Positions 8,393 to 24,883 of a stretch of DNA of 64,000 bases are shown one piece after another; within the stretch, counting starts at the first letter, position 1; the number at the start of each line of letters is the position of its first letter. Source of the stretch: a virus. Lineage: Duplodnaviria > Caudoviricetes. The translations under genes and the position numbers were made by a program. The stretch is taken from positions 25,164-89,163 of the IMG/VR virus record IMGVR_UViG_3300046528_000065, one strand, 5' to 3'. A model generated the notes under the pieces. That model saw nothing but the letters and a program-made list of their open reading frames with translations. It did not search any database and was not told the DNA's origin.

Positions 8393-10402
8393 ATGAGCAC
8401 TTACAAAGACTTCACCGACGACGTAAACGGAACTATCATTGGGGGCGATTACGGTATGTGCTGGGTTACTTACCAAGACAGGAAGCAGGGTAAGACTAAC
8501 TATCCCGCTAACAAGGTGGAAGCAGAGCAAATGTGCTCGTGTGTTGTCGAGGAAATCAAGAAAGACTGCGGAGAAGCTTTCAACATGATTTATCCTGACA
8601 AGGATGCATGGAAGTTTCATTTCGACGGTATTTGAACGTATAACAAACACAAGGAGAAATCATGGCAAAATTAACAGGCGACATCATCAAAGCTGGCTTG
8701 CACGTATGGGCCTTGGGGTATAACAGGAACACTCGTAAAGATGTTCCTGTAGAGTTGATTGTCATTTCAGGCGATGCGGGATCAATGGGGAGGCTGTATG
8801 TCATGCCAGCTAATGCTGAGAGTGATGACAAGTGGCTCACCAAAGACCCTAACACCCACCAACCAGTGATTTACCTTGGTGACAGTGGCGTGCGTCCTTA
8901 CAACTACGACGACAGGGCAACACAAGTGTTTACTACCAGGGAAGAAATGGAAGAAGCTATTGCATTGTGGGGAGGGAAAAATCCTAACTTTGTTACTGAG
9001 GATGGAATGGAATGGACATTGAGCGGAAGCCTGTAGACTATAAATAACAATCTTGTGTGCAGAAAATGCTTGCGTGCTTAGATGTGCTTTGGTATTATCA
9101 CTACATCGGTTGAACGCAAGTGAAACCAAATCGACAACGCACTAACACAAGGAGCCTAAAATGACCGTCGAAATCTTCCTCCCAATCTTCTTCGCAGTAG
9201 TTATGTCCGGCTTTGCTGCCACTATCATCGTCAGCATGTTCAACGATAGCAAGGAAGACAAGGCCCGTGCAGAGTATCGTGCAATGCTGGCTAAATGGGA
9301 CGAGCAGAAGCGCCAGGAAAGGGAAGCTTTCGACAAGGCAGCGTGGGAAGCTAGGAAGGCACGTAGGGCAGCGATGTATAATTGATCGGGAGGAATAAAA
9401 TGTACGCTATTCAATGGAAAGACACCAGGGCAGGCACTTGGCTACTATGCAGCACTAAGGGACAAGCTGAAGTGTATGATTCTATGCTTCGTGCGGCAGC
9501 GGCGGTAGAGAAATGGAAAGAGTCAGGTTATGAAGCGGACGAGTACAGGATTGTTGAGGCAGAGATTGTGTTCAAGGAAGACTAGCCATGACCAACACAT
9601 CATTCCTCGTTATCACTGTACTAGTCATCCTGTTGGCTGCCCTCTCAGGGCTGGCCCTGCATGCTGGGCTCACGCTGTGGCAAGAGGGACGTAAGAGGGA
9701 GCCTTACAAGCCAGGGAGCAAGGAAGCCGAGAGGGAGGGAACGTTGGAGGTGTGGAGGAAGGGCGGTGTTTAAGGAGTTTATAAGAATTCGTAAGAAAGA
9801 GCTTGCGTGTCGGTTTGTGCTGGGGTATTATTAGTCATCGGCTCTACAAACCCTCTAGGAGAAACAACATGAAAAAGTTTATCGTCCGCGTGAACAACGG
9901 TTTTAACTTTGAGTACCATTCAATGGTAGAGGCTGAAACTGTCTTTAAAGCAAGGAAAGAGTTCTTGACGAAACACAAGGGTGACTGGTTTGATACGCCA
10001 GGAGGGGTTAAACTTTCTGAAGTGAAAGAGGACAACAATGTACGACACGATAGCGTATGAGGAAGGCAGAAGGGCATATGAGAACACTACTCCGTGCCCT
10101 TATATAGAAGACTCGCCTTCCTACTATGATTGGTGGGAAGGCTTCAGAGATGCAGAGCAGGACGCCGAGGAAGATGCTGAATGAAGACAATCATCCATGT
10201 AAATCAACATGTTATAAAAGCTAACAGGAAGAATGACGAGAACAACCCCGTATTGACAGTGAAGACATACAAGAGCAATACATACGCTCACGCTGTAGAG
10301 ATTGAAGGGCCCAGCAGGATTGTATATAGCCCTAACAAGCCTCTCTCATGTGGCGCTCATGTGTGGATTGAGACGGAAGGGAATGTCACTGTTGTGGTGT
10401 AA
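8393..10402 (+). CDS. Cluster of small hypothetical early genes: 8393-8635, 8662-9036, 9161-9385 (TM), 9400-9585, 9588-9773 (TM), about 9869-10060, 10181-10402
   Basis: ORFs with AGGAG/GGAG SD sequences downstream of sigma70-like promoters. Confidence 0.65.
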
Positions 10403-10431
10403 TGATTGTATGCAGAATCAACACCAAAGAG

Positions 10432-10653
10432 GCCACCTAAACGGTGGCTTTCTCTATTGTGCAAAGCCTTATTCAGCGTGATTTAAAGGGCCTAGAAGGC
10501 GTCTGTTATGTGTGTTGGTAGGGACGTAGCCAGGAGGCTGTACAAGGGCAGAGAATAAGGAAGCCCCGTTCATCCGTATTGACTACAGGGGCAAAGTGTT
10601 TTTGTGATGATGTGCAAAGCAGCATACAAGAGGCCCGCTAACGCGGGCTTTCT
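10432..10653 (+). terminator. Two tandem intrinsic terminators closing the + strand early block (10432-10453, 10633-10653)
   Basis: GCCACC/GGTGGC and GCCCGC/GCGGGC hairpins, each followed by TTTCT. Confidence 0.7.
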
Positions 10654-11221
10654 GCTCTCTATTCCCTATTGAATAACCCACTTCTGAGCCTGTTCTAAGG
10701 CTCTACAGCATGCCTACACATGCATTGTGCTATGGCCCTACATGGCATGGCTTCAACAGGCTAGAGAGGCGCTATATAGGCCACATACGGCAGGCTATCA
10801 ATTAGGCTCAAAGCTAGACTACATGCGGCATACAAGCATTCTGTACAGAGTGCTATCTAATGGACTGTCCATCATAGTGGACAAGCTTTCCAGTATAGTG
10901 GATTGTCTGTATTGCATGCTTTGGCGTTAGACCACAATTCGTCCCTTCTTCGTTTCTTCGCCACCCTTGGCACCAACGAGGCACATTTAATAGGGACAGA
11001 GTGGTGCTATCGAGTGCCTATCAAATGAACATATGAACACCTATTCACATGTTGAAATGTGGCGAAGGGACGATCTACAGCAGCAGGACAGCGCCTGGAG
11101 GGGAGCTAGGGAGGCGAGAGGGGGAGGCTATGCAGGACGCAGGCAGAGGGATGGCAAGAGCAGCGATCCGGTAGGATCAATGCCAGGGAGGGCGCTATAG
11201 CTGGCTAGGAGGGACCTAGGC

Positions 11222-11256
11222 GGGGCAAGGAAGGGGCACAGAGGGGGAATGGGGGG
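11222..11256 (+). other. Canonical G-quadruplex motif within a G/A-skewed non-coding tract
   Basis: GGGG-N7-GGGG-N6-GGGGG-N3-GGGGGG. Confidence 0.7.
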
Positions 11257-11557
11257 CAAGCTGGCAGGGAGGGACGCTGGAGGGATGGCTAGAGTGCGAC
11301 GAGGAATGGGCGCTAGGAGTAGGCTATTCGGCTGCTCATGCACAAATCGATACGGGCATTTGAACTTGTTTATGAGTCCGCATGCCATATTTTTTAGGCA
11401 GGGAAGGGGTGGATATTGGGCATCACCGGGCACTGTTAGACCGCACAGGAGCCATTGCCCCGAAACAAGGAAGTAGTCCCCTCGATATATTTACCAGATG
11501 GCCTGGAAGCAACTCCACGAAGAGGGTCACTTCTCAAAAATTTTTATAGCCAAAATG

Positions 11558-11594
11558 CAAAAATGGAGGTTGCCTCAAAAAGAAGCACCTCCAC
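11558..11594 (-). terminator. Intrinsic terminator downstream of the serine recombinase
   Basis: On the minus strand TGGAGGTGC...GCAACCTCCA followed by TTTTTGCATTTT. Confidence 0.6.
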
Positions 11595-11691
11595 CTGGAT
11601 ATTTTCATGCTGCTATTTAGAAATATGTCTTTCTAATCAGCACACTACAAAGATTTTCTAAAGTTGTTTCTAGGACTCACCTCCACCTGGA
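11586..11691. repeat. 14-bp direct repeat CACCTCCACCTGGA (11586-11599, 11678-11691) containing the dyad TCCA-CC-TGGA
   Basis: Exact match; the second copy overlaps the last codons of the recombinase. Confidence 0.8.
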
Positions 11692-12339
11692 AATCACGCG
11701 GCAAACGCTAGTTGCGCTCCATTCCCCACCGCGAGCTGTCGGGGTGCATTGCTCATTCAGTTCCTGAGCGATTTCCGCATACGTCATCCCGCACGTAACC
11801 ATGCGCTCAATAGGTGGCCTCACTTTGGCAGCGAACCTATCAGCCTTCTCTTTGAGCACCGAGACAGCCTTCTGGCGTGCTTCATCCAGATTGGTACGGT
11901 TGCCCAGGATGACACCACGCGCTTTAGCTGCTGCCAACCCTGCCTTGGTCCTCACCCCAATCATCTCACGTTCTTTGGAAGCCAAGCCGCTGAAAATGAT
12001 TTCCACAAATGGGTCGGCATCCTCACCCTGCTCGATTGCCACCACCTTCTTTGACTTCATCAGCGAGCGGGAGATATCGAAGTCACGACTGGCCCTGTCG
12101 CTCTTGGTGACAACCACTTGGGCCTTCATCTTCTTTGCCATCGCCAGGGCAGTGGACATGACAGGACGATCCTTTAACGGAGTTGCACCAGAAATCACCT
12201 CGTCCATGATAGTGATTAAGTTATACCCATGATGCTTTGCCCAGCGCTCGATTTCTGCACGCTGACTATCGAGGCCATTTTTGGACAGGCCCTGCTCACG
12301 GGTGCTGACGCGACAAACTCCGATGAAAGATTTGGTCAT
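11677..12339 (-). CDS. Serine recombinase (resolvase catalytic domain plus short C-terminal recombinase/HTH DNA-binding domain)
   Basis: VCRVSTREQ (catalytic Ser), VVTKSDRASR, E-helix EREMIGVRTKAGL..AKARG, C-terminal IAQELN...TARGGEWSATSV. Confidence 0.92.
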   Translation of the reverse strand: MTKSFIGVCRVSTREQGLSKNGLDSQRAEIERWAKHHGYNLITIMDEVISGATPLKDRPVMSTALAMAKKMKAQVVVTKSDRASRDFDISRSLMKSKKVVAIEQGEDADPFVEIIFSGLASKEREMIGVRTKAGLAAAKARGVILGNRTNLDEARQKAVSVLKEKADRFAAKVRPPIERMVTCGMTYAEIAQELNEQCTPTARGGEWSATSVCRVISRWR

Positions 12340-12391
12340 GGTGTGGCTCCTAGATACGTTTAGATATGTGTATGGTACACAAATGAAAACG

Positions 12392-12859
12392 CTATGTCAA
12401 CAGCGATTCACCATGAGTCTTCAACAAACCTTCGGCCCTTGCCCACACGTTCTGCACGGACGACGTGTACCACTTGGCGTCTCGGTAAGTCTTTACGTCA
12501 TTGTTGTTAAGATGTTCCGCCAACTGGTAGAGCGTCATACCTTGATCCCTGAGTGGCTTAATAATCTTGTAAATCTTCAAGGCAAATTCATTTGCAGCCT
12601 TAACCATAGATTCCCCACCCTTCTTTGCGGCTTCAGCGAGGTTAGTCTGGTTCCCGAGTACAACTCCCCTTTCCTTGGCCCTGCGAAGACCTTCTTTGGT
12701 AAGCTCGGCATGATTGTCTCTACGCTTCCAGCCACCTTCGTGAACACGGTCGTGGCAGCAGCCACACAGAGGGACTGTTTGTGTGCCACCTAAACTTTGA
12801 GGAATTACGTGGTGATCTTCTGTTGCAGGCTTACCGCATTCAAAACATTTCTTATCCAT
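12392..12859 (-). CDS. HNH endonuclease domain fused to a serine-recombinase C-terminal arm and DNA-binding domain
   Basis: CFECG...DHHVIPQSLGG...VPLCGCCHDRVH, then TKEGL..AKERGVVLGNQTNL...GMTL..LA..LN; start at 12859 with SD AGAAAGG. Confidence 0.85.
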   Translation of the reverse strand: MDKKCFECGKPATEDHHVIPQSLGGTQTVPLCGCCHDRVHEGGWKRRDNHAELTKEGLRRAKERGVVLGNQTNLAEAAKKGGESMVKAANEFALKIYKIIKPLRDQGMTLYQLAEHLNNNDVKTYRDAKWYTSSVQNVWARAEGLLKTHGESLLT

Positions 12860-13034
12860 GATAGCCTTTCTTATATTATACAAGCCAAACAATACGTTTA
12901 GCCTTCTTAATACAACAATGTTATCACGGAAAGTTTTGTTGTCAAATAACAAGCCCTGTCAACTAACAGCACAAACAAAAAGGCCCGCCAACAGAGAACA
13001 TTCCCGTTCCCCGCCAACAGGCCCTTCTCACCAG

Positions 13035-14878
13035 TCACTTGCTCGCAACACCGTCACCGAAGCCTTCATCATACCCGTCGCTCCAGCTTGTATCGACATC
13101 CCTGTAGTATGCCACCTCCTCACGAAGCTCTTGCAGCAAATCCTCAGCATCCTCCCAGCGCACGTAGCGCCCATAAGAAACAGGAAGCTCTCCAGCATCA
13201 TTGATTTCGTATCGTTGAATGTCAGTCATCGCATCACCAATCAATTAGCCGAATCGAGCGCAGCATCCCAACGCTCGTCAAACTCCAACTTAGAAACAAT
13301 CCCTGGATTCTCAAGCTCCGCAATCCTAGCCTTCAGTTCCCTCACCTCCTCCAAATAATCTCCATGAGCCACATACTGCCCATTCTTGGCTTCCTCCAGT
13401 CCGAGGTAACCGACCTTGTATCGTTTAATCTCAGTCATGTTTACTCCCATTAGCATAACCTTCTTCCCAACCCTTATCGTAAGCATCTTCCCTGGCAATC
13501 GCAATGTCATCCTTCAGCTTCAAGATTTCCACTTTCATGTCTTGGACAACTTTCAAGTGGTCGTCATACAGCACATAGTCGCCCCACTCGCTCTCTTCTA
13601 TGCCATAGTCTCTGTCATCTTCGTAACGCTGAATTGTTTGCTCGCAAACGCTCTCACTCATAAGCCCTCCTTCTTCCGAAAAGAAAACGTAGTCTCCCAG
13701 TGCTTGTAGTCACAGGTCTCCACAAGCTCGTAGTCGGAAATATTCTTATCTTGATTCTGTAAAATCCACTGTGCAGCGAAGCATTCTTTGTTCTGTGCCA
13801 GTGTACGTTGTGCTAGTAGGACGATTTCTGTAATGCTAGTCATCACAGCCTCCACGAATAATTAGAGTCCCTGCCATCGCTATATCCGCTACTACGTGCA
13901 TTCTGCAACTCTTGTGCATGCAGCCTCTTGATGCGCTCAATCATGCCGATATAATCCGAGAACGCCACCCACTCCACACCATCACGCATATATCGCTGAA
14001 TCTGATATGGGTCATTAGCCTTCTTGTCAGCCTCGCGCTGTTCAGCCTGCTTCTTGAACCTTGCCATCAGTTCTTCAAATTCTTTAGTCCCCTCTTTATA
14101 CATCAAATCACCTCCCTAAGTTTCTCCACCAATGACAGGCGTGCAACGCCTTGCATAACTTGCCCCCTAATCTCATCCTCCGTGTGCTCCCTATCTACCT
14201 TATCTTCAAACCGCTGCTTAAATCCCTTCGGCAGAAGAAGCTCGACATCCACGCCTAGCGTGACACCTGCCACAGCACCTGCAATGTCCACACCTGTCTG
14301 CCCTCCTGAACGAATTTGCTTCAGCGGGTAATACTCTCCCACTTGTGCGAGGATTTTGTAGACATACAAATTGGCTTCCTCTTGTGACATCTTCTTGTGC
14401 AGCGTGTAAATACCATTACCTGCCACGTTGATTGTTGCAGGGGCTTTACTCCCGTTCCTAGCGAGACGCTTAAATAGCAGCCGCGCATTCTCAATCCAAG
14501 GAAGCACAGGATCAAGCTTCAAATACTTCTCCCCAGCCGCCTTACGCGTCAGCTTCTCTCCGGCTGTACTATAATCGACAGCAATGGCAATTGTCACGTC
14601 GCCCTTTGCAGCATTGACGTATGTGCGAGGGGCGTAGCTGCTGCTTGTGTGTTCAAGGATGGTTAGTGTCATTAGTCGTCCTCTGCACTGTACGGACTGC
14701 GATCTTCGTCACCAAGATCGATTGAGAAAATAGACGAGTCATCAAGCCGCTCTTTTAACTCTTCAATTTCAGATTGAAGTTTCTTGACCTCTTGAACGTA
14801 GTCGCCATGCTGGACGAACCTCCCTCTTTTGGACTCCTCCAAACCGAGGTATCCCACATTGTAGCGTTTAATGTCCAT
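13035..14878 (-). CDS. Five paralogous small proteins (13035-13229, 13241-13438, 13431-13661, 13843-14106, 14672-14878), interspersed with 13658-13855 and the SLOG gene
   Basis: Shared I(K/Q)RY...G.(Y/F/W)V...D motif and coiled coil; several end in aromatic-D/E-G repeats. Confidence 0.7.
14103..14672 (-). CDS. SLOG-superfamily (putative molybdenum carrier-like) protein, apparently circularly permuted
   Basis: IRSGGQTGVDIAG motif lies C-terminal to Y..RT..N and INVAGN motifs. Confidence 0.65.
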   Translation of the reverse strand: MTLTILEHTSSSYAPRTYVNAAKGDVTIAIAVDYSTAGEKLTRKAAGEKYLKLDPVLPWIENARLLFKRLARNGSKAPATINVAGNGIYTLHKKMSQEEANLYVYKILAQVGEYYPLKQIRSGGQTGVDIAGAVAGVTLGVDVELLLPKGFKQRFEDKVDREHTEDEIRGQVMQGVARLSLVEKLREVI

Positions 14879-20746: not shown

Positions 20747-21868
20747 ATGGCTGTCATTGAAGTTGGTAAGAAATTTGGGAAGCTCGAGGTTGTAGAGAAG
20801 GACGGTTTTTGCAAAGCAGTCTGTTCGTGCGAGTGCGGCACTACGAAGGATTACACATATCACTCTCTGGTCTACGGCGGCAACACATGCTGTGGGTGTA
20901 CTCATACAGGCAGAGCTGGCGTCAAGAAGAGTAATAGCCAAGCTATTAGGCTCTCGAAAGAGCTGCATGGCGAAGGCACTTATGGTTACAGCCGGTTCGT
21001 CTACACGCACGGTAAGGCCAAGGTTGAACTATTCTGTAATAAACACCAAGAGTACTTTTCAATCTCTGCAACACAACATCTAAGTCGAACGAGGAAGGGC
21101 GGCTGTCAGAAGTGTGCTGTTGGGCGCAGGGCAGACTTTCATCGGAGTAGTTTAGAAGACTTCGTTACAAAGTCCAAGACTGCACAAGAGTCTCTTGGAA
21201 GGTCTTTCGACTACTCCCGTGTCAAGTACGAGACAGCAAGAATTAAGGTAGAGATTGGGTGTAATGCCTGTGGTACATGGTTCTGGCAGACACCTCACAG
21301 CCACTCCATCGGCAAGGGCTGCACCAACTGCAAGAATATAAAGCTTGCCAGCGACCGTAAACACACGAAAGAACAGTTTGTAGATGAGGCCAGAAAAGTT
21401 GTTGGTGATAGGTATTGCTTCGACCTTGTGGAATATAAAAACGCGAGGACTTACGTGAATGTTATCTGCAATGACTGTGGAGAAACTTTCAAAAAGAAGC
21501 CGATGGAAATTCTAAACGGGCACGGTTGCAGGTGCCACGCTGTACCGTGTGGGTACAAGAGCGCTGAACCTGGAAATCTGTACGTGCTAACTTGTGAAGG
21601 TATGACCAAAGTGGGCATTACTAATCTTAACCCACACGACCGTGCAAAAACCGTCAGCAAATCATTTGGTAAAGACTTTGTAGTGCTCACGTATTTCACA
21701 ATGGATGGGCAGGAGTGCACGGACCTCGAAACAACGCTATTACAGGAGCTCAGGAATGAATATGAGAGTCCTAGTGAGAAGTTCGACGGATACACTGAAA
21801 CATTTTATTTCGTAGATAGACCCAAGTTGATCTGTCGAATTAAGGAGATACTGAATGACTCAAAATAA
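20747..21868 (+). CDS. Putative homing endonuclease: Cys/His zinc-ribbon repeats plus C-terminal GIY-YIG (T5orf172-like) domain
   Basis: Repeated (F/Y)DYS.V.Y....KV.I.C..C/H...F...P..H..G.GC..C; NLYVLTCEGMTKVGIT...FDGYTETF. Confidence 0.75.
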   Translation: MAVIEVGKKFGKLEVVEKDGFCKAVCSCECGTTKDYTYHSLVYGGNTCCGCTHTGRAGVKKSNSQAIRLSKELHGEGTYGYSRFVYTHGKAKVELFCNKHQEYFSISATQHLSRTRKGGCQKCAVGRRADFHRSSLEDFVTKSKTAQESLGRSFDYSRVKYETARIKVEIGCNACGTWFWQTPHSHSIGKGCTNCKNIKLASDRKHTKEQFVDEARKVVGDRYCFDLVEYKNARTYVNVICNDCGETFKKKPMEILNGHGCRCHAVPCGYKSAEPGNLYVLTCEGMTKVGITNLNPHDRAKTVSKSFGKDFVVLTYFTMDGQECTDLETTLLQELRNEYESPSEKFDGYTETFYFVDRPKLICRIKEILNDSK

Positions 21869-23315
21869 AAAAGAAAAAAAGGTCATTGGACCCAAGAGCG
21901 AAAAGCAACGAATGATCCTTCAGGATAATAGCACGGATGTGCTATTATGTGGCGGGGGTGCCGGGGGCTCGAAAAGTTATACTTGCCTTTTGAAGGCACT
22001 CAAGTATGTCCAAGACCCTGCCGCACGCGTTTTGATCGTGAGGGAATCTTATCCCGTTTTAAAATTACCGGGCGGCCTCGTGGACGAATCCCAACGGATA
22101 TACAGGGAGTTCGGTGCGGAATTTAAGATTCAGGCTTTAACCTGGGTTTTTAAAAACGGGGCTGAAATCAAGTTTTCCGCGATTCCACAGAACATTGAAG
22201 AGTGGCAGGGATTACAGGCTAGTCACATTTTAGTTGACGAAGCGGCAAGTCAGACAGAGCACGTTATCCTCTTCTTGCTGAGCCGCCTCCGCAGCGGATC
22301 GTATAAAGGTCATATGAATTTGACCATGACATGCAACCCGGATAGGAATAGTTTTCTGTATAACTGGCTTTGTGATTACTGCTTGGACCCAGAGACAGGT
22401 ATTCCCGTGGAGGGGACTGAAGATATTGTCAGGTACTTCGTCAGTATTGATGGCGTTCTTAAGTGGGGAAACTCTAAGCAAGAATTGTACGATAAATACG
22501 GACAAGGGACGACTCTCGGAAAAGATTTTTTGCCAAAATCGTTTAAATTTATTCCCCTCACCGTTTATGATAATCCGACGCTCCTAAAGAACAATCCAGA
22601 TTATCTGGCGAACCTAATGGCACAGCCGCGAGTCAACCAACAAAGATACCTCCACGGTAGTTGGACTGCTCGCCCTAGTACAAGCTCTTATTTTTCTAGA
22701 AGCTGGGTTGAATTCATCGATGCAGCACCTACAGAAGATATTGTGGGGAGAGTGCGAAGCTACGATATCGCGGCAACAGAAAAATCTGAGCAAAATAAAG
22801 ACCCCGACTACACAGCAGGCGTGAAAGTCTCGCGGGATAAGCAGGGTGTGTACTATATTGAACACGCTAGGCGTTACCGTAAGAAGCCAGATGGTGTTTT
22901 GAAGGAGATTATCGCTACTGCAAAAGAAGATGGCCTAGACGTACCTGTAACGATCCCTCGTGATCCTGGGGCGGGCGGGGTTATCGCAAATCGATTCTTC
23001 GTATCGACCCTTACAGAGGCTGGTGTCACAGTCAAGTCCATCCAAACTTCGGGACACACCAGTAAGGTGAATGGATTCTTGCCATTCAGTGCATTGGCTG
23101 AGGCCGGTATGGTGAAGGTAGTGCGGGACACACCGAATGACAGGTATTTGGATGACATGTTGATGGAGATGGAGTACTTCACCGGAGGCCGGAACGAGCA
23201 CAATGACTTTTGTGACGCAATTTCAGCGGCGTTCTCTACGTTGATGAAACAGAACACAATCCCAACCTTCTCCATCCCAACCTTCACAACATCATCACCA
23301 ATCCCCTCCCTATAA
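21855..23315 (+). CDS. terL: Terminase large subunit
   Basis: Walker A GGGAGGSKS, Walker B ILVDEAA, TCNPD, nuclease acidic residues YDIAAT...DPDYTA...HNDFCDA. Confidence 0.95.
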   Translation: MTQNKKEKKVIGPKSEKQRMILQDNSTDVLLCGGGAGGSKSYTCLLKALKYVQDPAARVLIVRESYPVLKLPGGLVDESQRIYREFGAEFKIQALTWVFKNGAEIKFSAIPQNIEEWQGLQASHILVDEAASQTEHVILFLLSRLRSGSYKGHMNLTMTCNPDRNSFLYNWLCDYCLDPETGIPVEGTEDIVRYFVSIDGVLKWGNSKQELYDKYGQGTTLGKDFLPKSFKFIPLTVYDNPTLLKNNPDYLANLMAQPRVNQQRYLHGSWTARPSTSSYFSRSWVEFIDAAPTEDIVGRVRSYDIAATEKSEQNKDPDYTAGVKVSRDKQGVYYIEHARRYRKKPDGVLKEIIATAKEDGLDVPVTIPRDPGAGGVIANRFFVSTLTEAGVTVKSIQTSGHTSKVNGFLPFSALAEAGMVKVVRDTPNDRYLDDMLMEMEYFTGGRNEHNDFCDAISAAFSTLMKQNTIPTFSIPTFTTSSPIPSL

Positions 23316-23401: not shown

Positions 23402-24883
23402 ATGGCAGCTAAAAAGAAGCCTAAAGATTCCACGGCGGCTTTGGCTGCTGACGAAGGTGCTGTAATCCCTCGCCTAGCATTAGGCGAAATGGGCTTCCCC
23501 GGCCTTAAAAATTACAACGGGCGCATTGCAGAAGAGGTTAATGCAGCCTTCCAGTTCCCCCGCTTCTTCTGCACGATTGAAGAGATGCGCCGTACAGCGA
23601 TTATTGCATCTGCACTCGGCGCATACAAGTTCCTCATCTCCAGCGTGCAATGGCCTGTGGTGCCGCCTGTGGGCGCGACTGACGAGCAGATTGCTCGTGC
23701 AAAATACGTAGAGTCCCTCAAAGACGATATGGAAATTAGCTGGGACGACTTCATTGCTGATACGTTTGAGTATATCCCATACGGTCACAGTGTACAAGAA
23801 AAAGTTTGGCGTCGTAGACTGCTTAAGAACGGTTCACGCTTCAATGACGGCAAGGTGGGCCTACGAAAGCTATCTCCACGTGCGCAAGAGACACTCACCA
23901 AGTGGGAATTCTCAGAAGACGGGCGTGACCTCCTGGCAGTGTATCAGTCGCTGTCTCGTATGCAGAACGGCCACCTGTACACCAACAATGCAATCGACGG
24001 AATGATCCGTATCCCCCGTGAGAAGTTCCTGCTCTTTACAGCAGACTCCACCCGTGGAAACCCTCTCGGTAACTCTATCCTCAAAGGCGTTTATCTGGCT
24101 TACAAGCAGATGTCGATGCTAAAGGATACCGAAATTCTTGGCATTGCAAAGGAGGCGGCAGGACTCCCACTTATCCGCATCCCTGCAAAGTACATGGCGG
24201 CTGATGCCAGCGACGAGGACAAGCAAGTTTATGAAGCTTGCAAACTAATCCTCAAGAACCTGTCGAACGGAACGAGTGAGGGTATCGTATTCCCTACCGC
24301 GATTGACCAGGACTCTAAGAAAGATATGTTTGACATCTCCCTCCTCGAAAAGAAGGGTGTGAATGGTGCAAACATCGATGTGGTCATACGCCGCTACCAA
24401 GACGAAATTTTATCTGCACTGTCTGTAGACATTCTCAAAGCTGGTAGCAACATTGGCAGCTTCTCTTTCGCAGACGGAGACACTAACGTTCTAGCACTGG
24501 CTATTCGACACAGACTGAATGAAATCGCCAACGTTTTGAATAATGATCTTATCCCTTCGATCTTTAAAATGAATGGTTGGACTGACGAGATTCTTCCTCG
24601 CTTCGTCCCATCAGACATCTCTAAGCAGAGCCTCGATGAACTCGGAAAGTTTATTCAGCGCACGGCAAGTGTTGGCCTCGTGGAAGTTAGCCGAAACGTT
24701 CTTAACAAAGTTAATGACGCTCTTGGTGTTCCTCTTGAACCTTCTGATAAGCCTGTTGATAAAGAGAACCTCTCTATGGCTACCTCGAACGGTGGCGAAG
24801 GTATGAAAACTGCCGGGGAAGGGACTGCCAAGAAACCGGGTGCGAAAGACTCCAGCACGCAAAATTCAGAAAATGCTTCGTAA
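23402..24883 (+). CDS. Portal protein
   Basis: Follows terL, 493 aa, YGHSVQEKVW and GNPLGNSILKGVY motifs. Confidence 0.9.
   Translation: MAAKKKPKDSTAALAADEGAVIPRLALGEMGFPGLKNYNGRIAEEVNAAFQFPRFFCTIEEMRRTAIIASALGAYKFLISSVQWPVVPPVGATDEQIARAKYVESLKDDMEISWDDFIADTFEYIPYGHSVQEKVWRRRLLKNGSRFNDGKVGLRKLSPRAQETLTKWEFSEDGRDLLAVYQSLSRMQNGHLYTNNAIDGMIRIPREKFLLFTADSTRGNPLGNSILKGVYLAYKQMSMLKDTEILGIAKEAAGLPLIRIPAKYMAADASDEDKQVYEACKLILKNLSNGTSEGIVFPTAIDQDSKKDMFDISLLEKKGVNGANIDVVIRRYQDEILSALSVDILKAGSNIGSFSFADGDTNVLALAIRHRLNEIANVLNNDLIPSIFKMNGWTDEILPRFVPSDISKQSLDELGKFIQRTASVGLVEVSRNVLNKVNDALGVPLEPSDKPVDKENLSMATSNGGEGMKTAGEGTAKKPGAKDSSTQNSENAS

Follow-up and report, generated by a model that had tools for sequence, protein, structure and literature searches.

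A putative homing-type HNH endonuclease with a serine-recombinase tail, encoded beside a resident recombinase gene of a tailed phage

Structures of gamma-delta resolvase bound to DNA show the minor groove at the center of the site occupied by the arm and the C-terminal portion of helix E, from which the chain continues to a helix-turn-helix (HTH) domain placed about one turn along, in the major groove. The HNH homing enzymes that have been characterized are known for DNA-binding modules of the NUMOD type. The homing endonuclease I-TevI joins a GIY-YIG nuclease head, through a long linker and a minor-groove segment, to a C-terminal HTH, and it represses its own promoter via the same domain. An HNH head and a recombinase tail are brought together at a locus in a 64,000-nucleotide stretch of DNA (the window) from the viral record IMGVR_UViG_3300046528_000065, a linear record of 89,163 bp that is called complete. 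There, a small serine recombinase gene (Rec) is found next to a gene for P0002, a protein of 155 amino acids (aa) in which an HNH head is fused to a recombinase-like tail. Comparisons with relatives suggest that P0002 is probably a free-standing, homing-type, site-specific HNH endonuclease with a recombinase-derived tail, and that it is encoded by an optional gene.

An HNH head on a recombinase tail

The two genes and the parts of the fusion are arranged as follows.

11677-12339, minus strand: Rec (P0001), small serine recombinase gene, 220 aa, with catalytic domain, helix E, arm, and HTH or partial 'Recombinase' domain
12392-12859, minus strand: P0002, HNH-recombinase-tail fusion gene, 155 aa, recognized by head and tail homology
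about 12716-12859, minus strand: head of P0002, residues 1-48, a zinc-containing HNH (Zn-HNH) domain
about 12395-12715, minus strand: tail of P0002, residues 49-155, with the end of helix E, a linker, and the HTH domain

Rec matches the Pfam Resolvase model PF00239 with 75.8 bits (cut-off 23.3), has a partial Recombinase domain at its C-terminal end, and matches phrog_125 (DNA invertase) at 1.4e-26. Residues R10, S12, D81, R82, R85, E123, R124, and R130, which include the serine of the RVST motif and the helix-E arginines, are invariant among 12 orthologs. The nearest solved structure is Gin invertase, at an E value of only 1e-4, and by sequence Rec is distant from every solved recombinase.

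The relationship between the two tails is clear. BLASTP aligns Rec residues 122-218 with P0002 residues 45-141 without gaps, and 38 of 97 positions are identical (E 1e-17), which is far beyond chance. RTKAGL of Rec is aligned with LTKEGL of P0002 at a join inside helix E, and what the fusion retains is therefore the arm and HTH domain, preceded by the final third of helix E. Homology to Rec starts only at Rec residue 122, and P0002 gives no match to PF00239. Because it lacks the serine catalytic domain, P0002 cannot recombine. An earlier note on this DNA, made by reading the letters of the sequence, had described an intact recombinase of 220 aa, an adjacent 155-aa Zn-HNH protein with a CxxC, HH, CxxCH pattern, a shared arm and DNA-binding domain (about 35 of 89 residues identical by hand count), and a join at helix E. 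The conserved catalytic residues and Resolvase match of Rec, the motifs of P0002, and the position of the join bear out each of these descriptions, and BLASTP gives a slightly better count for the shared region.

The motif residues of the P0002 head are C5-x2-C8, H16-H17, C32-x2-C35-H36, and H40. Across 60 diverse family members, C5, C8, H16, C32, and C35 never vary, and conservation of H17, H36, and H40 is 90% or higher. A structural zinc site of two CxxC motifs is thereby present, and because the nuclease residues are conserved in these 60 members, the nuclease appears to be under selection. As a single sequence, P0002 gives Pfam HNH and Recombinase matches that are all below the gathering thresholds. 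Compared with solved structures, a family profile matches the HNH domain of IscB (4.8e-10) and McrA (3.3e-6), and also matches, weakly, the recombinase domain (RD) of SPbeta integrase and the helix-E end of Gin.

Structure prediction gives a similar picture. An AlphaFold2 model made from the 60-sequence alignment has a mean predicted local distance difference test (pLDDT) score of 91 and consists of a small strand-strand-helix head (strands 14-17 and 28-31, helix 33-39, pLDDT about 90) and a helical tail (helices 50-63, 74-105, 110-119, and 132-153). The profile matches, the conserved histidines, and the modeled strand-strand-helix are those of an HNH/His-Me finger core. A Foldseek search with the whole model returned nothing significant, and VIA-align comparisons of residues 70-155 gave generic HTH matches only, all tied at Z scores of 4.5-7, including small terminase (Z 5.7), sigma region 4, SPbeta integrase, and Tn3 resolvase.

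The fusion is not an isolated curiosity. A search of 1.84 billion representative proteins yielded 2007 family matches at E<=1e-3, a number that falls to 546 when the limit is set at E<=1e-10; most are proteins of 140-165 aa in which both head and tail are covered. No Pfam or NCBIfam model covers the fusion, and a literature search, incomplete in its coverage, found no named family or published description of HNH proteins with serine-recombinase tails. ESM Atlas clusters with automatic names do pair HNH with PF07508, and among the best four, three are 100% viral and the fourth is 54% viral. Thus, the earlier remark that the architecture was not recognized as described holds, within the literature searched, with regard to names and publications, but databases already contain it. 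Four larger proteins, P0050 (902 aa), P0063 (554 aa), P0067 (537 aa), and P0183 (683 aa), each have three to five separate matches to the head or tail of P0002, and these may be multi-module architectures or fused gene calls.

Head and tail have also followed different courses. Between the window and L005 (L-numbers denote loci or contigs of the relatives compared with the window), the heads are 88% identical as protein and 79% as DNA, whereas the tails are 33% identical as protein and cannot be aligned as DNA. The Rec proteins of these two phages are 44% identical. Similarly, L132 carries a head of the P0002 type (82%) with a tail that is only 34% identical. Retargeting of a homing endonuclease would be expected to leave a trace of this kind, in which the head stays conserved while the tail changes fast or is exchanged.

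Occurrence with and without the recombinase

If the two proteins formed an obligate system, each gene should be found with the other. Relatives found via their ClpP gene (L126, L127, and L129-L131) carry Rec at the syntenic place and have kept the flanking genes, and yet the HNH gene is absent; it is present in the window, in L128, and in others. The gene is therefore present or absent at one locus in otherwise syntenic genomes, and Rec is a fixed gene of this phage group, with or without its neighbor.

The fusion likewise occurs without a recombinase. Informative loci were defined as those with distinct full-length family members and enough flanking DNA, and 'nearby' was taken to mean within 300 bp. 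By this measure, 20 of the 34 informative loci have no recombinase near the fusion. When the whole records of 16 more distant members were searched with the Pfam Resolvase model, only two contained the domain, and there the HNH gene was roughly 10 kb distant. Three viral records are at least 90% complete; one of these, a complete genome of 40.9 kb, lacks a Resolvase domain altogether, and in the remaining two the domain lies roughly 10 kb off. Rec does not need the HNH gene, nor does the HNH gene need Rec. Since each occurs without the other, this is not an obligate two-component system.

These findings alter three proposals made in the earlier note. The pair that it called a two-component system is real, has paralogous tails, and adjoins at 14 of the 34 informative loci, but each gene also occurs alone. 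The expected co-occurrence of such fusions with resolvase genes accordingly holds for those 14 loci and fails at the other 20. Of the three functions suggested, a homing-type mobile cassette fits best, although for the HNH gene alone and not for the pair.

Where the genes do adjoin, their arrangement varies. A recombinase gene of 220-233 aa is next to the fusion in each of the first six contigs examined. The two genes may be in tandem, which is the arrangement of the window, may converge so that their 3' ends overlap, or may have the recombinase first. Relative to the window, Rec is inverted and converges on the HNH gene in L005 (5482-6159), L006 (5518-6219), L007 (5548-6225), L015-L017, and L019, and the 3' ends of the two genes overlap by about 70-90 nucleotides in L005, L007, L015, L017, and L019. 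In L005-L007, a terminator directly precedes the HNH start and no HNH promoter of its own is visible.

The neighbors of free-standing family members, where checked, include the large subunit of ribonucleotide reductase, a fragment of a family-A DNA polymerase, gp32, DNA methylases, and a T5orf172-like gene. Neighborhoods of this kind are classic for homing endonuclease genes in T4-type phages. In L033 (1584-4441), a family member overlaps the end of the gene for the ribonucleotide reductase large subunit. In L172 (681-2323), another abuts an open reading frame (ORF) of 395 aa that matches only part of family-A DNA polymerase, and this polymerase gene may be split.

The DNA upstream of each gene in the window contains the following signals.

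12980-13025, minus strand: predicted strong intrinsic terminator of the upstream gene, at the left edge of the HNH insert; a similar terminator is present in L127
12918-12945, minus strand: predicted HNH-gene promoter, TTGACA-16-TAACAT with an extended TG, from the sequence and alignment with relatives
12892-12901, minus strand: CTAAACGTAT, copy in the HNH leader, exact match
12372-12400, minus strand: predicted sigma-70-type Rec promoter, TTGACA-17-TACCAT, kept in front of Rec in relatives, the HNH-less L127 among them
12354-12363, minus strand: CTAAACGTAT, copy in the Rec leader, exact match; candidate shared operator or leader motif

The final codons and the stop codon of the HNH gene are overlaid by the -35 hexamer of the Rec promoter. 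With its own promoter, a terminator upstream, and a separate promoter for Rec, the HNH gene is therefore a self-contained unit between the terminator and the Rec promoter. The sequence CTGTT(AG)TTGACA is present at both edges of this unit. In L127, the Rec promoter comes immediately after a homolog of window positions 13035-13244 and its terminator, and when L018 (with the HNH gene) is compared with L127 (without it), whose Rec genes are close, homology resumes at the Rec promoter. Optional presence at one locus, autonomy as an intergenic gene, and DNA-metabolism neighbors across the family are all characteristics of homing endonuclease genes.

Tail ancestry, target choice, and competing explanations

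If P0002 acts as a homing-type endonuclease, its DNA-binding module would run from the C-terminal third of helix E through the minor-groove arm to the HTH or 'Recombinase' subdomain, and this tail would bind a specific half-site in the manner of a recombinase tail. The helix-E remnant and linker would point to the center of the site and would hold the Zn-stabilized head at the position from which a recombinase attacks. Because the head stands on a stump of helix E, it should sit where the recombinase would cut, and it might nick or cut the DNA at that center. Nicking would be expected of one monomer bound to a half-site, and a double-strand break could result where a palindrome binds two. The HNH gene would probably spread or persist through cutting of HNH-less genomes near the locus, followed by recombinational repair.

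The ancestry of the tails is relevant to what such a protein might recognize. When tails alone are placed in a tree, those of HNH and Rec proteins from this phage group separate into two clades, one for each protein. There has been no recent exchange within the group. Moreover, the Rec tail closest to a given HNH tail in this group is not that of the neighboring gene, which ranks 3-14. Across the wider family, the careful tail tree contains at least four label changes, with L143 as an exception in the analysis, and a single origin is seen in no bootstrap tree. This pattern suggests, on short alignments, that tails have passed between HNH and Rec genes several times.

Several observations weigh against the homing explanation. 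A recombinase stands beside the fusion at 14 of 34 loci, which is commoner than a purely selfish gene would predict. The HNH tails of L008, L021, and L023 are sister to the tails of their own neighboring recombinases, with support of 97-100 in the careful tree and 93-95 in a larger quick tree, identities of up to 61%, and shared lineage-specific insertions. In the larger quick tree, the HNH-tail and Rec-tail clades of this phage group are nearest neighbors among 105 tails, which is a less firm result (support 84). Common regulation or binding is hinted at by CTAAACGTAT, which is common to both leaders, and no clean insertion scar was found in the alignment of L018 with L127. Finally, the middle Asn of the H-N-H motif is absent from P0002, where the McrA loop that bears this residue is deleted. 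Some other HNH variants likewise lack the middle Asn.

The leader motif deserves further description. Exactly two copies of this 10-mer occur in the window, one per leader, and rough arithmetic gives a chance expectation of about 0.1 exact copies for a given 10-mer on both strands of 64 kb. The core TAAACG is kept in both the Rec and HNH leaders of L001, L003, and L011, and lies within the palindrome TAAACGACGTTTA in the HNH leaders of L001 and L012. The motif may serve both genes as an operator, or it may be left over from a promoter-leader duplication. Tail phylogeny and the 10-mer in both leaders lend only indirect support to a related site specificity of the HNH protein and Rec, as the earlier note had supposed.

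A bolder form of the homing explanation takes these hints further. The nuclease might repeatedly take or exchange the tail of a neighboring recombinase, through recombination at the conserved helix-E motif. It would therefore recognize the operator or recombination site of that recombinase (the CTAAACG-type motif of both leaders), and it would home by cutting this site in HNH-less genomes, while the two proteins cross-regulate each other. This proposal is tentative and somewhat doubtful. If true, it would describe a homing endonuclease family that parasitizes the site specificity of a recombinase.

A functional partnership with Rec is another candidate, albeit an unlikely one. In this case, the fusion would bind the same or overlapping sites as Rec and serve as a regulator or competitor at Rec operators, as a directionality or topology factor, or as a nuclease that processes recombination sites, perhaps in the conserved 1.27-kb non-coding element that flanks Rec. 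The HNH gene adjoins Rec in nine of the nine close viral-contig relatives that carry it, and the sister tails, the neighboring tail clades, and the restriction of CTAAACGTAT to the two leaders of the window, with TAAACG conserved there in relatives, would all suit partners as well. However, Rec is present without the fusion at the same locus, and the fusion is present without any recombinase; the obligate co-occurrence expected of a directionality or accessory factor is thus not seen. The neighboring Rec tail is not the closest one in this phage group, and gene order and orientation vary. Judging from the gamma-delta resolvase structures, the dimer interface of a recombinase is built from the catalytic domain and a part of helix E, both of which are missing from the fusion. 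With only the last third of helix E remaining, heterodimerization with Rec through this helix is unlikely.

The evidence for a site-specific nuclease applies equally to an enzyme of competition or exclusion, which would cut co-infecting related phages or other mobile DNA but would not have its gene copied into the cleaved site. A paper on phage nucleases found where genetic exchange has its boundaries offers a precedent (PMC10448857), and changing targets would select for a fast-changing tail on a conserved head. Such a role is nevertheless improbable, since presence or absence at one fixed locus is more simply explained by homing or loss.

It is very improbable that P0002 is a nuclease-dead DNA-binding protein whose HNH head serves as a zinc module and which represses the HNH and Rec promoters. 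The leader motif common to both genes and the missing middle Asn would suit a repressor of this type, but H16/H17, H36, and H40, the histidines expected to act in catalysis or metal binding, are conserved across a very diverse family, which is hard to explain by structural zinc alone. Least credible of all is a terminase-associated HNH protein of the HK97 gp74 type that aids genome-end cutting during packaging: many HNH proteins of phages play this part (PMC3592412), the Rec tail faintly matches a small-terminase PHROG, and the fusion tail can be laid on a small-terminase HTH (Z 5.7), but the large terminase gene (21855-23312, plus strand) is about 9 kb off, another HNH-type gene (20747-21865) lies directly upstream of it, and the fusion is missing from close relatives.

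Should cutting by the putative homing endonuclease be confirmed, P0002 and its relatives, with their hundreds of sequence clusters, would make up a large family of natural enzymes in which a site-specific nuclease is built on the DNA-binding body of a serine recombinase. Protein engineers exchange domains at the point where head and body meet here, and the family could be a source of enzymes that nick or cut at sites recognized in the manner of a recombinase. Head and tail mosaicism, together with repeated kinship to the tails of neighboring recombinases, would trace how homing endonucleases gain targets. For annotation, the pair would best be treated as a resident recombinase and an optional selfish nuclease rather than as a new two-protein recombination machine.

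Surrounding DNA and comparison with known systems

Other features of the window that were considered are as follows.

10403-11676, no strand assigned: non-coding element next to Rec, about 1.27 kb, with convergent transcription units on either side; conserved and aligned across nine relatives
21855-23312, plus strand: large terminase gene (terL), by gene match
23402-24880: portal gene, by gene match

The non-coding element is kept in nine relatives whatever the orientation of Rec, with many invariant short blocks and one G-rich strand. It has no Rfam match, and RNAalifold gave -8.9 kcal/mol over 648 columns of the G-rich strand, with no convincing structure. The element could hold the sites at which Rec acts, and an origin, a recombination locus, or a packaging locus can be offered as guesses. 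The core of the element has a direct repeat of GTTAGACC near its two ends (about 10926-10933 and about 11436-11443; GTTAGACCACAA and GTTAGACCGCACA). The Rec-distal copy is reverse-complemented in L001, L005, L126, and L129, where it reads GTCTAAC and the two copies form inverted repeats even though the DNA between them is collinear; with so short a motif, this arrangement may have arisen by chance. Two terminator-like hairpin modules (10416-10453 and 10617-10653), 200-201 bp apart, form a diverged direct repeat at the end of a plus-strand gene block. In the HNH-less L126 (13265-14488) and L129 (12769-13908), an extra ORF of 379-407 aa lies between Rec and the conserved element.

Two flanking genes were considered as anchors for finding related loci. 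A 73-aa protein (10181-10402, plus strand) has more than 570 relatives in viral contigs, the best 80 of which are 72-85% identical; it is too widespread to serve, and those best 80 loci hold neither Rec nor the fusion. For a small phage protein, its degree of conservation is unusual. An 88-aa flanking protein gave no match. Further away, the second, unrelated HNH-type endonuclease gene (20747-21865, plus strand, 373 aa), which matches phrog_681 and phrog_559 and is directly upstream of terL, is either a terminase-associated HNH gene or another homing gene.

Searches for a larger mobile unit were negative. No close relative of Rec was found among 185,579 bacterial species genomes, where the best relatives are merely 26-36% identical. 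Consequently, these genomes offer neither a prophage copy nor an att site that could be read, and there is no evidence for Rec as the integrase of a known prophage. A DNA search of a phage collection with positions 10400-13100 gave no match, and a protein search of the same kind gave tail-level matches only, to 'resolvase/invertase' genes of Phapecoctavirus-type phages. At the locus, there is no tRNA nearby, no Rfam family, and no long inverted or direct repeat bounding the genes. An invertible segment or IS-like unit was also considered, and these Rfam, tRNA, and repeat searches provide no support for it. The locus was found in a single sequencing run, probably that of the source sample; its contigs, which are blind to rare inversions or deletions, contained no alternative joints.

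Among known systems, the likeness to IS607, in which a serine transposase is accompanied by TnpB, is loose. The earlier note had drawn this parallel, and a serine recombinase gene does stand beside a nuclease gene in both cases. However, the IS607 transposase model NF033518 scores only 32.6 bits at this locus, far short of its cut-off of 110, so the locus does not encode a transposase of this type. Furthermore, the nuclease is a 155-aa HNH protein and not TnpB, the pair has no long inverted repeats, and Rec is fixed even when the nuclease gene is absent.

The small serine recombinases (gamma-delta and Tn3 resolvases, Gin, and Hin) and the alphaE-linker-RD portion of large serine integrases are counterparts of the tail of P0002, which is homologous to that of the neighboring Rec. 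Unlike these enzymes, P0002 has no serine catalytic domain. Engineered zinc-finger nucleases and recombinases follow the same logic, with a catalytic head swapped on a DNA-binding body at the helix-E junction. Proteins of the P0002 type differ in being natural, and in making the reverse swap of a nuclease head onto a recombinase body.

I-TevI offers a functional analogy, given its head-linker-HTH plan, and its autoregulation is brought to mind by the motif common to the HNH and Rec leaders. Its nuclease fold is different and there is no sequence relationship, and autoregulation by P0002 would be a guess. The free-standing HNH homing endonucleases of phages, such as the I-HmuI type and T4 Mob, are known for binding modules other than the serine-recombinase helix E-arm-HTH of P0002, whose head is closest to the IscB/McrA type. 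In other respects, they resemble P0002, with a small HNH head and a separable sequence-specific DNA-binding module, and with intergenic, optional genes that have their own promoters and that, across the family, neighbor genes for ribonucleotide reductase, DNA polymerase, and gp32.

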